A DNA stretch of 64,000 nucleotides from Gammaproteobacteria bacterium (GCA_963581445.1 CAUZON010000014.1:3672-67671); one strand, 5' to 3'. Shown: positions 1,000 through 57,566, counted from the stretch's first letter. Program-made: numbers and translations. Notes: a model not told the origin generated them from the sequence alone.

Positions 1000-1479
1000 C
1001 TAGAATGAGCCTAGGATCGTCTCGGTCAGCTCTTCCGGCGCAGTTTTCGGACTAAAGCGCCCCACAACCTCACCGTCTTTGTTGACCAGAAACTTTGAAA
1101 AATTCCATGGTATGTCTGCATTACCTTCTTCGTCAGTTTTCTCGCTCTTGAGAAATTGATAAAGCTCACATGCATTGGCGCCATTAACTTTAATTTTGCT
1201 GAACATTTGAAAGTTAACGTTGTATTTCGTTTGCGCAAATTCAAGCACTTCTTCGTTACTACCTGGTTCCTGTGCGCCAAATTGGTTGCATGGAAAGGCT
1301 AGAACCTCGAAGGGATGGTCGGCAAATTGTTCTTGCAGAGTACGCAACCCGGCGTACTGTGAAGTTAATCCTCAGCGACTGGCCACGTTGACTATTAGGC
1401 AAGCTTTGCCTTGGTAGTCAGCAAAGTTCACTTCGCTACCTTGGATGTCGAGCATCTTGATGTTGTGGAAGACTGTCAT
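1000..1479 (-). CDS. glutathione peroxidase, predicted selenoprotein (in-frame UGA at 1372..1374)
   Basis: Track ORF 1000..1347 extends in the same frame to ATG 1477..1479, with AGGAA 8 nt upstream. The only interruption is a TGA within VNVASR-[TGA]-GLTSQY, the GPx catalytic Cys/Sec position. FPCNQFGAQEP and PWNFSKFLV motifs follow. Confidence 0.8.
1339..1358 (-). promoter_or_regulatory. candidate bacterial SECIS hairpin for the GPx UGA
   Basis: The mRNA reads A-GUACGC-CGGGUU-GCGUAC-U, a 6-7 bp stem starting 13-14 nt after the UGA. The apical loop contains GGUU. Confidence 0.5.
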
Positions 1480-53930: not shown

Positions 53931-54854
53931 ATGAGTGATTTACAACGCCCAAGCGATTTTTTCTCGCCGACTGAAATAACCTACCTGCGTTCAGTATCCA
54001 GCTGGCGCAGCACTTTAGCGATAGTGCATTGCTGGGGTGTAATTTTGGGCGCTTGGATTGTGGCCAGTATTTGGACAAACCCTCTCACGGTTATTTTGGC
54101 CATTATGATTATTGGCGCGCGGCAGTTGGGTCTATTTGTTCTTACACATGACGGTGCCCATGGTGCGTTGTATGCCAACCGTAAGGTCAATGACTGGATT
54201 TGTGAGTGGATTCTTAATCGACCGTTTACTGATGAAAAAATTGATACCTATCGCAAGTACCATGTAAAACACCACGTGAATACTCAGCAAGAAGACGATC
54301 CGGATCTTGCGCTGTCAAAACCTTTTCCAATTTCTAAATCTTCATTTCGCCGCAAAGTCATTCGCGACCTCACTGGGCAGACCGGTTGGGATCAATATGG
54401 GCGTATCGTCCGCGCTGCGTTTAAGGGCGACACGCTTAGTCAGCGCCTAGCAAACGCGTGGCGCAGAATTGGCCCCAACGCGGTGATCAATTTGCTGTTC
54501 TTGGCGGGCTTCGCAGCAGCAGGGGTTTGGTACATGTACTTTCTGTTGTGGTGGGTGCCAGCGTTAACTTGGAATCGCTTTATAGTGCGCCTTAGAAATA
54601 TTGGTGAGCACGCGGTGGTGCCTGACAACGATGATCGCCTGCGCAATACTCGAACGACAATTGCGAGTTGGTGGGAGCGGGCGCTGATAGCACCCTATAA
54701 CGTGCAGTATCATTTAGAGCACCACTTGGTGGTTAACTGCCCTCATTACAAACTCAAAGATGCGCACAAAATGCTCATCGAAAAAGGCTATGAGGATCAG
54801 ATGGAAATTCAGAAAGGCTATAAGGCGATTTTGGCGTTAGCGGTGCCCTCCTAA
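53931..54854 (+). CDS. membrane fatty acid desaturase family protein
   Basis: Three His boxes are present: HDGAHG, HVKHH, HLEHH. TM segments are also present. Confidence 0.88.
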   Translation: MSDLQRPSDFFSPTEITYLRSVSSWRSTLAIVHCWGVILGAWIVASIWTNPLTVILAIMIIGARQLGLFVLTHDGAHGALYANRKVNDWICEWILNRPFTDEKIDTYRKYHVKHHVNTQQEDDPDLALSKPFPISKSSFRRKVIRDLTGQTGWDQYGRIVRAAFKGDTLSQRLANAWRRIGPNAVINLLFLAGFAAAGVWYMYFLLWWVPALTWNRFIVRLRNIGEHAVVPDNDDRLRNTRTTIASWWERALIAPYNVQYHLEHHLVVNCPHYKLKDAHKMLIEKGYEDQMEIQKGYKAILALAVPS

Positions 54855-54980
54855 AAAAAGCTAAAAGAGATTCAGTAGAAAACCGCTGCAGAACAAGATG
54901 ATCAATTGACGGATTTTGAAAAGCAGTATTTCCTCAGGGCATATAAATTGGCACATATAAAACAAAGTCAGCGCTTATCC

Positions 54981-55017
54981 TAAAAGGAAAGGCAGTGTGG
55001 ATCTTATCCAGACTGCC
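54981..55017 (-). terminator. candidate terminator of the peroxiredoxin-like gene
   Basis: 12-bp stem with one mismatch (GGCAGTGTGGAT/ATCCAGACTGCC) at 54991..55017, followed on the minus strand by UUUCCUUUUA. Confidence 0.5.
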
Positions 55018-55048
55018 CACTCCCCCGCTTTAACAGCCAGCTACACCC

Positions 55049-55534
55049 TTAATTTTTTTTTGCTCTCTGAGCATTGATAAACTCAATCAAAGTCAGTGTT
55101 TCTGCTGCGTCCATACGCCCTACGGGTGAGTTGCTGTAAGTCGAGGCCATGACCTTGCCGCTCTTGGTGAGTATGAATTCGCTTGGCTGGATAAAGTCTC
55201 TACCCTCATCCCACCAAGCGCCTAGGCTGTCGCCTTGTGCTCGTGTGACCCCATGGGCTACTGGAAAGCCCAGTGGTTGTGCCACCTCACTGGTTTTCTC
55301 TAGCGAGTCTACCGCGGCGGCAATCATCGTTACCCCTTGTGCTGCAAGCGCTTCACTGCGCTCTTCATAGCCGGCTAACAGTCGGCGGCAGTAAGGTCAC
55401 CAATGGCCGCGATAAAACAGCACTACGGTAAAAGGGCTGGTGAGATCAGCAGGGAGCTTTATTTCACTGCCGTCTACGCTTGTGAGGGTAATGTCTGGAA
55501 ACATATCCCCCGGTTGAAGTTTTTCGACCATCAT
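55049..55534 (-). CDS. AhpC/TSA (peroxiredoxin-like, thioredoxin-fold) protein, predicted selenoprotein with UxxC motif
   Basis: Track ORF 55049..55327 extends in the same frame to ATGATG 55529..55534 (AAGGA RBS). The only interruption is TGA 55397..55399 within VVLFYRGHW-[TGA]-PYCRR, the position of the first Cys in the redox CxxC motif. Confidence 0.78.
55370..55386 (-). promoter_or_regulatory. candidate SECIS hairpin for the peroxiredoxin-like UGA (weak)
   Basis: The mRNA reads GCCG-ACUGUUAGC-CGGC, starting 10 nt after the UGA codon, with GUU in the loop. The stem is only 4 bp. An alternative 6-bp hairpin GAGCGC-AGUGAA-GCGCUU lies at 55346..55363. Confidence 0.3.
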
Positions 55535-55648
55535 TTTTCCTTCTTATTTTCCCCGAATCTTTTCTAACCTATACTAAACAAAGGCCTTTAGACGCATAAA
55601 GCCCTTTAGACGCATTACGCTGAGTCAAATGCCCATTTGTCTAAAGTC

Positions 55649-56803
55649 TTAAAACAGGCTGTCGAAGTCTCTGCGCTCGTTACTACCGCGGCAGCTTTGA
55701 ATACATTTAGCCAGTATCGGAATACCGGCGCTGATTTGTTCGAATGTCAGATGGCCAAAAGCCAATCGTAAATAAGCCACGTCTTTGCGTTGGTAGTGGA
55801 ATGACTGGCCGGGCAGAAAATTAAGGCCTTCGCCCAATGCCATGTCGCGCAGCGCTTTTCTGTCTACGTCTTCAGGTATGCGTACCCAAATAAACAGTCC
55901 GCCAACGGGTTCAGACCAAACACAGATATCGCTTAACTCGCTTTCCAGACCGGCAATGGTCAGATCGCGCTTTTCTTTGAGTACAGGATTGGTGGCTTTG
56001 GCGTGGGCTTGAATACCTCCTTTATAGAACTCTGCCGCGATGGCGGCAGCCAAATAGTTACTGCCAGCGTCGTGCCTGCGCGCCATGATTTTTTCTAACA
56101 TGGGAGGGCGTGCGTAGATGTAACCTAGTCTCAGTCCCGGGGCGAGAATTTTTGATAAAGAGCAAAGATAAATCTGATTTGGGTCGTCATCCAGCGCGTA
56201 AAACGCAGGTTCTAGTGGGCCATCGTAGTGCACGTCCGCGTAGCAATTGTCTTCAACAATGGGCACGTTGTAGTGCTTGGCCAGATCTATAATTTGTAGG
56301 CGTCGGGCCTTGGGCATAACAAAGCCCGTGGGGTTTTGGTAGGTGCTGATGGTGTAAATAAACTTAGGCAGGCGCTTTTCTTTAGCTAGCCGAGACAGCG
56401 CTGCTTCTACAGCGTCTGGACACATGCCGCCCTCATCTAAGGGAATGCCCACCATGTCGTACTTCAGGCTGCGGTAAGCACTGAGGGTACCCGGGTAGCA
56501 GTACTCTTCTACCAATACAGTATCACCTGGATTGTCTTGCAGCGCCTCGGCTGTGAGCGTGACGCCCTGCATGGATCCGTTGGTGAGCAGTAGGTGGTTG
56601 GGGTCAATGGTTAAACCCTCGCGATCAGCTTCGCGTTGAGCCATGGCGATCCGCATGCCTTCGTGGCCTAAATTGCCCGGGTATTGGGTCAACGCCTCCG
56701 CTTGTTCTTCAATGACTTTGGTTGCAGCGGCTTGCAGCGCCGCTACTGGGAATGTGGCCGGGTCAGAGCGTCCGCTGCCGAAATCGTATTTTATTTTAGA
56801 CAT
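55649..56803 (-). CDS. PLP-dependent aminotransferase (class I/II)
   Basis: Fold-type I pattern (TNGSMQG, YQNPTG, SLSKILAPGLRLGY with the PLP Lys). ATG 56803 overlaps the upstream stop (ATGTCTAA). ATG 56821 is an alternative start. Confidence 0.85.
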   Translation of the reverse strand: MSKIKYDFGSGRSDPATFPVAALQAAATKVIEEQAEALTQYPGNLGHEGMRIAMAQREADREGLTIDPNHLLLTNGSMQGVTLTAEALQDNPGDTVLVEEYCYPGTLSAYRSLKYDMVGIPLDEGGMCPDAVEAALSRLAKEKRLPKFIYTISTYQNPTGFVMPKARRLQIIDLAKHYNVPIVEDNCYADVHYDGPLEPAFYALDDDPNQIYLCSLSKILAPGLRLGYIYARPPMLEKIMARRHDAGSNYLAAAIAAEFYKGGIQAHAKATNPVLKEKRDLTIAGLESELSDICVWSEPVGGLFIWVRIPEDVDRKALRDMALGEGLNFLPGQSFHYQRKDVAYLRLAFGHLTFEQISAGIPILAKCIQSCRGSNERRDFDSLF

Positions 56804-57566
56804 TGCCTTCAGCCAATCCATTTTCAGTTAAGTATTTGTAGCTGCGTGCTATAGCGGTGAGCATGTCTGTGGCGCAAGCATCGAGTTCCACCACTGCCCA
56901 TTCAAAAACCTCTGGATCTGCTGCGGCGAATACTTTGGCAATATCCATTGCACCAGAACCCACAGCCACGTGGGGCATATCGGGTTTCAGCGGGCCATCT
57001 TTGATGTGCATCAACGGCGTACGCGCTTTAATGCGGGTTAATTCTGCTGCGGGGTCATTGTTGCCAAAGTTAGCTGCCCAGTAGGTGTCTAGCTCAAAAG
57101 TCAGTTCGGGAATGGCGTCCTGTAAATAGTGATAGCCGGGGCGCCCCTGAATTTCGTTGAACTCCCAATAGTGGTTATGCAGGAACAACGTCAGATCATA
57201 GGGTTTGAGCTGGTCGACAAAAGCTTGGGTGGTCTCAATCGTGCGATTGACCGCGTTCATATCTTTGAAGTCATCTGGACCATAGCCACCGGGCACGCGG
57301 TTGAGTCCCAGTTCTTTAACAATGTCTGCTACTCGGCCGATGTCAGGGTTGCGATTGACCCAAGGGAAATGAGTGGAAGAAACTGTCATGCCCAGGTCTT
57401 CGACCTGCTTTTTAAACTCGGTCGGGGTTTTGCCAAAGAGGTGAAAGGGTTCTACGCCCTTAAAACCAAGCCGCGCGATAATATCTAGCACTTGATCAAA
57501 GTTCTCGGCGGAGGCCTCTCTGACACTGTAAAGCTGTACCGAAATAGGTACTATTTTTGCACTCAT
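56796..57566 (-). CDS. sugar phosphate isomerase/epimerase (xylose-isomerase-like TIM barrel)
   Basis: MSAKIVPISVQLYSVRE start with GGGAGAA RBS, and an AP-endonuclease-2/TIM-barrel pattern (FLHNHYWEF, MHIKD). The 72-codon upstream track extension was rejected. Confidence 0.82.
   Translation of the reverse strand: MSAKIVPISVQLYSVREASAENFDQVLDIIARLGFKGVEPFHLFGKTPTEFKKQVEDLGMTVSSTHFPWVNRNPDIGRVADIVKELGLNRVPGGYGPDDFKDMNAVNRTIETTQAFVDQLKPYDLTLFLHNHYWEFNEIQGRPGYHYLQDAIPELTFELDTYWAANFGNNDPAAELTRIKARTPLMHIKDGPLKPDMPHVAVGSGAMDIAKVFAAADPEVFEWAVVELDACATDMLTAIARSYKYLTENGLAEGNV

Follow-up and report, generated by a model that had tools for sequence, protein, structure and literature searches.

A 64,000-nt stretch of genomic DNA from a Gammaproteobacteria bacterium (GCA_963581445.1, CAUZON010000014.1:3672-67671; hereafter, the window) was found to contain what is very probably a selenocysteine (Sec)-encoding gene for a peroxiredoxin (Prx)-fold redox protein, which gene finders cut in half at an in-frame UGA codon. 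Sequence comparison revealed the features by which bacterial selenoprotein genes are recognised: the UGA is in frame and coincides with a Cys of homologous proteins, both the UGA and the coding potential flanking it are conserved, and a stem-loop resembling a Sec insertion sequence (SECIS) element lies downstream. The identification is correct but not new: the gene belongs to a predicted selenoprotein family that was catalogued from ocean metagenomes in 2005-2008.

Gene structure and the in-frame TGA codon

Translation of the window revealed that positions 55049..55534 of the minus strand form one frame of 161 codons followed by a TAA stop. The sole internal stop of this frame is a TGA at codon 46, found in the context VVLFYRGHW-TGA-PYCRRLLAGYEE, which yields the motif RGHW-TGA-PYC. 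The features of the gene are as follows:

55049..55534, minus strand: predicted Prx-like (AhpC/TSA-fold) selenoprotein coding sequence (translation, Pfam, 80 orthologues co-linear over residues 1-161, coding periodicity flanking the TGA)
55397..55399, minus strand: in-frame TGA, codon 46, predicted to be read as Sec, first position of U-x-x-C (TGA in 80/80 orthologues; TGC/TGT in eight Cys-form homologues)
55388..55390, minus strand: TGC, Cys49, second residue of U-x-x-C and presumed resolving partner of Sec (invariant in 80/80 orthologues)
55538..55542, minus strand: AAGGA, Shine-Dalgarno-like, upstream of two ATG codons (direct reading of the sequence)

The mechanical list of open reading frames (ORFs) of the window holds only the 92-aa C-terminal piece of this gene (55049..55327). 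For the Pfam search, Cys was put in place of the TGA stop. The product obtained in this way matches AhpC-TSA (E-value, 1.3e-18; 67.6 bits, the cut-off being 26) over residues 8-129, a stretch that runs across the TGA, and also matches Redoxin over the same residues (E-value, 2.3e-13). An earlier note on this DNA had claimed that the 92-aa ORF is only the C-terminal half of a protein whose frame extends to ATGATG at 55529..55534, with AAGGA in front of it, and that a single TGA in a W-TGA-PYC context interrupts that frame. Both claims are borne out, by exactly one internal stop in the translation and by the Pfam match running across the TGA.

Of the two adjacent ATG codons, the second (55529..55531) is the only one conserved among close relatives, in which locus L002 starts with L-M and L004 with I-M. 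Because close relatives keep only the second Met, the true start is probably the second ATG (55531), which would give a product of 160 aa.

Conservation of the TGA codon and of both halves of the gene

The set of orthologues was obtained by a scan of one genome per species, which yielded 80 loci (L001-L080), nearly all of them from metagenome-assembled genomes (MAGs) of marine Pseudomonadales. The TGA-containing gene is present in the K189A clade, OM182, Azotimanducaceae, Pseudohongiella, Oceanicoccus and others, and most of the records are labelled Gammaproteobacteria or Pseudomonadales. Protein identity to the window gene ranges from 61% to 98%, the closest orthologue (98%) being that of a K189A-clade MAG. 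In all of the 80 species-representative genomes the aligned codon is TGA, and the frame is open on both sides of it. The earlier note regarded two such TGA codons, 54 kb apart, as hard to explain by random nonsense mutations. In a single genome a TGA could be a random nonsense mutation, being only one base away from TGC and TGT, but a TGA shared by 80/80 independent species-level genomes is not due to chance.

The two parts of the gene show nearly the same pattern of codon-position entropies. In 78 sequences, the values at positions 1/2/3 are 0.82/0.61/1.63 for the 36 codons upstream of the TGA and 0.77/0.56/1.68 for codons +18 to +60. This match indicates that the N-terminal 45 codons are kept as protein, under the same selection as the remainder.

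These observations bear on the possibility of a pseudogene or a genuinely split gene, in which the TGA would be a nonsense mutation and only the C-terminal fragment (the 92-aa ORF), or nothing at all, would be made. The closeness of TGA to TGC/TGT by a single substitution would fit such a scenario, as would the annotation of only the downstream fragment by gene callers for 71 of the top 120 database matches, but the same TGA recurs in 80/80 species at 61-98% identity, the 45 upstream codons keep full coding periodicity, and the internal starts of the annotated fragments are not conserved. Judging from the structure model described below, a fragment devoid of the active-site motif and the first beta-strands could not be expected to function. 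A pseudogene is excluded by the 80/80 TGA codons together with the equal coding signature on both sides, and this explanation as a whole is regarded as extremely unlikely.

Four loci stand apart from the general pattern. Two contigs carry a Pseudomonadales-type Prx-like Sec gene (63-65% identity) under other taxonomic labels, namely, L047 (CAXPUI010000163.1, 'Candidatus Fonsibacter ubiquis', a freshwater SAR11 relative) and L067 (NVUL01000096.1, 'SAR86 cluster bacterium'); these are probably mis-binned contigs rather than cases of lateral transfer. MAG YZ09aD_8.18 has two differing copies of the TGA gene on two contigs (L021 and L042; 67% and 65% identical to the window protein), which are either paralogues or the result of a mixed bin. 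Outside this set, locus L173 (201..668; protein P0025) has TTA (Leu) at the Sec codon with hairpin 1 (see below) intact. It is a 1-kb contig whose name gives cov_1.33 (coverage of ~1.3); either the read is wrong at this codon or the gene was inactivated very recently.

Homologues in protein databases

Classes of homologues were counted among the top 120 protein database matches (P0001-P0120). Fragments of ~88-125 aa that begin right after the TGA account for 71 of them (59-99% identity), and their internal start codons are not the same from one to the next. Another 35 are 'full-length' entries with W at the TGA column, mostly at 52-64% identity (three at 44-47%). True full-length Cys forms make up 12 of the 120 (45-54% identity), and the DNA of eight Cys forms has TGC or TGT at the Sec codon. 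The earlier note had suggested checking whether the TGA column is Cys in homologues, and these Cys forms show that it is.

The entries with W at the TGA column might be taken to mean that the organism reads TGA as sense (genetic code table 4 or 25); the related explanation is a one-base sequencing or assembly error. Yet the one W entry traced to its DNA (L166) has TGA there, which verifies that W arises by table-4 translation of TGA DNA, and the same TGA is found in 80 independent assemblies. TGA also serves as the stop of 9 of the 44 long ORFs in the window, hence no code reassignment is indicated, and the taxonomic labels of the records (see above) are likewise at odds with such a code. Both sequencing error and an alternative genetic code are excluded by the 80/80 TGA codons, the nine TGA-terminated ORFs and the L166 DNA, and this explanation carries next to no weight.

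RNA hairpins downstream of the UGA

RNA structure was analysed in an alignment (A3) of 71 distinct 75-nt segments around the TGA, in which the UGA occupies columns 7-9. The following elements were found:

55370..55386, minus strand: hairpin 1, GCCGAC-UGUUA-GCCGGC, 17 nt, starting 11 nt after the UGA, with the apical loop starting 17 nt after it (RNAalifold)
55346..55363, minus strand: hairpin 2, GAGCGC-AGUGAA-GCGCUU, with the family consensus GARCGC-CGUGNN-GCGYUY, starting 33 nt after the UGA
55356..55402, minus strand: alternative lower helix, UGGUG (55398..55402, which holds the U and G of the UGA) paired with CGCCG (55356..55360), enclosing hairpin 1 (RNAalifold consensus)

The consensus structure given by RNAalifold combines hairpin 1 (columns 20-36) with the lower helix, in which UGGUG pairs with a near-invariant CGCCG. 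Hairpin 2 (columns 43-60) is a local alternative to the lower helix, and the two are mutually exclusive. Both hairpins had been proposed in the earlier note, from the single sequence and at the same positions.

Comparative analysis lends support to the two hairpins. Taken together, 94.4% of their cells in A3 pair, compared with 28-41% when the partners are slid; double changes were observed in 19 cells against 2.8 expected and involve five pairs, and the covariation score was reached by none of 500 shuffles. For hairpin 1 the share of paired cells is 92%, and pairs 20-36, 24-32 and 25-31 show compensatory changes. In one instance, an Arg codon varies synonymously at its third base in step with the middle base of the codon five codons on (CGG/GCC, CGT/GAC, CGC/AGC, CGA/GTC). 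In hairpin 2, with 97% of the cells paired, G.U, A-U and G-C are all seen at pair 45-58, and pair 47-56 changes from GC to UA. The lower helix pairs in 98.6% of the cells and hardly varies, so that covariation speaks neither for nor against it.

Constraint on the coding sequence is also evident. Third-position entropy is lowered to 1.03 over codons +1..+17, and synonymous sites of hairpin 2 are near-frozen, the third-position values for Arg+13, Arg+14 and Ala+16 being 0.27, 0.46 and 0.37, respectively, versus ~1.9 elsewhere. Sec (TGA) forms (n = 71) keep on average 6.5 of 7 pairs in hairpin 1 and 5.8 of 6 pairs in hairpin 2; the corresponding means for Cys forms (n = 8) are 3.9 of 7 and 3.6 of 6. 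Orthologues combining a conserved TGA with conserved downstream structure, another check put forward in the earlier note, are therefore at hand, given TGA in 80/80 genomes and both hairpins kept with covariation.

A second candidate selenoprotein gene in the window

The window contains another gene with a TGA in place of a catalytic Cys codon, which encodes a glutathione peroxidase (GPx):

1000..1479, minus strand: GPx, NVASR-TGA-GLT (TGA at 1372..1374)
1339..1358, minus strand: GPx hairpin, perfect 7 bp, AGUACGC-CGGGUU-GCGUACU, 13 nt after the UGA

The 79 metagenomic relatives of this GPx comprise 44 with TGA and 35 with Cys. The hairpin sequence GUACGC-(AGGUCU|CGGGUU)-GCGUAC is found in the 44 TGA-form relatives listed and is absent from the 35 Cys-form relatives. 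The loop of the GPx hairpin is GCAGGUCUGC in most relatives, which matches the loop at the apex of the fdhF SECIS of E. coli. The Sec-type TGA of the GPx gene and its conserved hairpin thus lend indirect support to Sec decoding in this genome.

Relation to the Prx-like 1 family

A survey of the selenoproteome in Global Ocean Sampling (GOS) data (Zhang & Gladyshev 2008, PMC2398784) lists in its Table 2 a predicted selenoprotein family, 'Prx-like 1', with pfam00578 and the UxxC motif, and the sequence supplement to the same paper contains 27 Prx-like 1 sequences with GHWUPYC. In the earlier study of the Sargasso Sea selenoproteome (2005, PMC1088965), a 'Prx-like protein' was described with a predicted thioredoxin-like UXXC active site, as opposed to the TXXU of Sec-Prx. 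According to a 2026 review (PMC13188914), the 'Prx-like thiol:disulfide oxidoreductase, PF00578, UxxC' is predicted with high confidence, and a representative from Geobacter is named.

The window gene has the pfam00578 domain, the UxxC motif (W-U-P-Y-C) and similarity to published members of Prx-like 1. Over 124 aa, the window protein shares 69% identity with a published GOS read, JCVI_READ_1161201 (E-value, 2e-71), and by eye this read is nearly identical to locus L052. Orthologous family, pfam00578 domain, UxxC motif and marine origin are shared with the GOS sequences, and nothing of substance sets the window gene apart from them; the papers list read-derived fragments without taxonomy.

Protein fold and predicted mechanism

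The structure model used was that of a Cys homologue, P0030 (pLDDT 88.7), which served as a 54%-identical proxy for the window protein. Its best matches in the PDB are peroxiredoxins of the BCP/PrxQ, AhpC and Prx6 types (TM 0.83-0.85; 15-24% identity), and the Cys equivalent to Sec sits just before the active-site helix. In the hhalign alignment with E. coli BCP (probability 96%), the registers are as follows:

conserved Thr of T-x-x-C(P) in E. coli BCP: the Sec column
peroxidatic Cys of E. coli BCP: Cys49
catalytic Arg (HRISF) of E. coli BCP: invariant Pro117 of IQPSEF

The overall fold and the placement of the active-site residue at the start of the same helix are thus common to the Prx-like protein and to the BCP/PrxQ and AhpC peroxiredoxins (M. 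tuberculosis BcpB, 5epf; S. solfataricus Bcp4, 3hjp; E. coli BCP). The catalytic residues are different. The P-x-x-x-T/S-x-x-C of canonical peroxiredoxins reads R-G-H-W-U-P-Y-C here, with Thr replaced by Sec, Pro by Arg, and only the Cys kept, and their catalytic Arg aligns with a Pro that is invariant in the Prx-like family. Sec-Prx (T-x-x-U) also belongs to pfam00578 and was found as a marine selenoprotein in the same surveys, but its Sec replaces the peroxidatic Cys, whereas in the Prx-like protein Sec takes the Thr position, three residues before, and the Cys at the peroxidatic position is kept (UxxC).

The thioredoxin-like CxxC oxidoreductases (ResA/TlpA, thioredoxin, PDI domains) resemble the Prx-like protein in having W-C/U-x-x-C followed by a helix, with a conserved Pro opposite. 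At the sequence level, the best PDB and NCBIfam matches are of this kind (PDI, a thioredoxin-family protein and ResA; E-values from 4e-5 to 3e-4), though these matches are very weak and far below the family cut-offs; by structure comparison, the Prx-like architecture is nearer to peroxiredoxins. As modelled, the protein combines the scaffold of a peroxiredoxin with a U-x-x-C of the thioredoxin style and a conserved Pro.

Based on these comparisons, the locus is best explained as one intact gene for a cytoplasmic redox protein of ~160 aa with a peroxiredoxin-type thioredoxin fold, in which the UGA at codon 46 is very probably decoded as Sec. Following the standard bacterial pathway, the RNA structure located just downstream of the UGA, within the coding sequence, would recruit SelB-GTP-Sec-tRNA(Sec) to the ribosome, so that Sec is inserted instead of termination. 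The U-x-x-C is predicted to lie at the N-terminus of the active-site helix, opposite the invariant Pro (IQPSEF). Sec46 would act as the attacking nucleophile, and Cys49 would resolve the intermediate to give a selenenylsulfide, which a cellular reductant would then re-reduce. Since the U-x-x-C and the invariant Pro are present and the catalytic Thr and Arg of peroxiredoxins are replaced, the protein is most likely a selenol/thiol-disulfide oxidoreductase, and a classical peroxiredoxin mechanism is less likely.

Which hairpin acts as the SECIS element

The minimal E. coli SECIS is an upper stem-loop of ~17 nt, located 11 nt after the UGA, in which SelB is contacted by a conserved GU of the apical loop and by a bulged U. 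The usual search model for bacterial SECIS elements calls for an apical loop with a G, ~16-37 nt downstream of the UGA. With a length of 17 nt and a start 11 nt after the UGA, hairpin 1 is by this geometry a candidate for the SECIS core. As in the E. coli SECIS of the fdhF type, the stem-loop is found inside the coding sequence directly after the UGA, and a possible lower helix includes the UGA itself. The differences are that the loop of hairpin 1 is UGUUA in the window (which contains GU) rather than of the GGUC type, that its G is present in 57 of the 71 sequences, the loop varying across species, and that hairpin 2, also conserved, comes after it. A bulged U is not evident.

The loop of hairpin 2, ~39 nt from the UGA, is CGUG in 64 of the 71 sequences, and because of this conservation hairpin 2 is an alternative or second candidate for the contact with SelB. 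The motif CGCNGKGNNGCG occurs 118 times in the 1.7 Mnt scanned, 75 of them at the Prx-like site; behind other plausible in-frame TGA codons in these 1.7 Mnt, the hairpin-2 motif was found only at the GPx gene of the window. At its top, hairpin 2 reads CGC-CGUG..-GCG in the family, the loop of the window's own copy being AGUGAA, and is similar there to the GPx hairpin, whose top is CGC-CGGGUU-GCG; this is a post hoc observation on n = 2 genes.

The conserved CGUG loop, the frozen synonymous sites and the GPx-like top raise the idea of a two-part SECIS, in which SelB would recognise hairpin 2, ~33 nt after the UGA and far outside the canonical spacing, and hairpin 1 would be a structured spacer conserved in shape and not in sequence. 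In another version, the UGGUG:CGCCG helix, which would sequester the UGA, may toggle with hairpin 2 as the ribosome arrives. This proposal is tentative and, on balance, unlikely.

Evidence against Sec insertion and the possibility of other recoding

Several results weigh against the assignment of the gene as a selenoprotein gene with a SECIS element. The 66-nt RNA of the window itself is no more stable than shuffled sequences (z = +0.6; the fold of 146 of 200 shuffles is equally or more stable), hence the hairpins are not significant on this single sequence and their support is comparative; the remark in the earlier note that the SECIS is less convincing here than for the GPx was fair in this respect, and it is the comparative data that rescue the hairpins. 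Hairpin 1 in the window has an A.C mismatch, its loop is devoid of G in 14 of the 71 sequences, and the loop of hairpin 2 lies beyond the range of the usual bacterial search model. No match to Rfam at the gathering threshold was obtained across the whole window, and the 201-nt region gave one noise hit at E<=10. Two of the Cys forms, L084 (2001..2480) and L167 (301..780), both with CPYCRRQLAGF, retain six of the seven pairs of hairpin 1 and do not keep hairpin 2. Their hairpin 1 could be a remnant of a Sec-containing ancestor, or the pairing could come free from the R-R-x-L-A-G codons, so a part of the hairpin 1 pairing may stem from the encoded amino acids.

The Sec machinery was looked for as well. 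ARAGORN found no tRNA-Sec in the 64-kb window or the 80 orthologous loci (785 kb), and E. coli SelA, SelB and SelD gave no tblastn match at 1e-3 against the window and the 80 loci (849 kb); these negatives are uninformative, since sel genes normally lie elsewhere. With a gammaproteobacterial-looking Sec-SelD read from the GOS supplement as a probe, the best matches were at most 80% identical and the named ones belonged to Deltaproteobacteria or Bacillales, so this lineage was not reached. To this should be added that the 2026 review does not place the Prx-like UxxC family among the experimentally verified selenoproteins, and that the structural reasoning rests on the 54%-identical P0030.

In view of these points, one may ask whether the UGA is recoded, but not as Sec. 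A near-cognate tRNA (for Trp or Cys) could bring about read-through, or Cys could be inserted via a Sec-like route, and the hairpins would then stimulate read-through rather than bind SelB; hairpins that fit no curated SECIS model, a loop G that is not universal, and the lack of sel genes in the window and the 80 loci would all agree with this. On the other hand, the UGA column corresponds to a redox-active Cys in homologues, a classic Sec/Cys pair, and the GPx gene of the same window has TGA at its catalytic Cys with a hairpin conserved across 44 TGA forms. Read-through with Trp is further contradicted by the purifying selection on the gene, as Trp at the nucleophile position of CxxC would kill the enzyme. 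A 2016 survey has in its supplementary list the values 6 and 2 for the marine gammaproteobacteria HTCC2143 and HTCC2080, respectively, which are taken here as counts of selenoprotein genes and likewise argue against recoding other than as Sec; of the strains looked for in that supplement, only HTCC2143 was found, with HTCC2080 listed beside it. No paper linking K189A, OM182, Pseudohongiella or SAR92 with selenocysteine was found in the literature. Taken together, non-Sec recoding is considered very unlikely, and Sec remains the preferred assignment of the UGA.

Genomic context

Two genes flank the Prx-like gene:

55649..56821, minus strand: PLP (pyridoxal phosphate)-dependent aminotransferase/MocR-like protein, on the same strand, 114 nt upstream of the Prx-like gene
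53931..54854, plus strand: hydroxylase/fatty-acid-desaturase-like protein, convergent

Synteny is partial: the aminotransferase-like gene is found upstream in 24 of 81 loci, and the desaturase-like gene is convergent in 23 of 81. With partial synteny and ordinary metabolic neighbours, no redox operon is evident, and no functional partner or substrate can be deduced from the context. Consensus scans revealed no sigma-70-like promoter within 54850..55700 and no minus-strand terminator.

Biological significance

The main value of this analysis lies in the correct annotation of the gene, and the knowledge of selenoproteins is unchanged by it. Public protein sets mis-call the Prx-like gene: among its top 120 relatives, 71 entries are cut short at the UGA, and in 35 this position is mistranslated as Trp. 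For the abundant oligotrophic Gammaproteobacteria of the sea (K189A, OM182, Azotimanducaceae, Pseudohongiella), redox inventories consequently miss this selenoprotein. To a family known mainly from anonymous shotgun reads, the analysis adds a home in marine Pseudomonadales and a data set of 80 species, and for the RNA element of the family it provides a covariation-supported picture across 71 sequences. Among bacterial SECIS elements, a two-part organisation or a toggling lower helix would, if true, be out of the ordinary. It is probable that these bacteria need selenium for two or more antioxidant or redox enzymes, a dependence of relevance to trace-element ecology.

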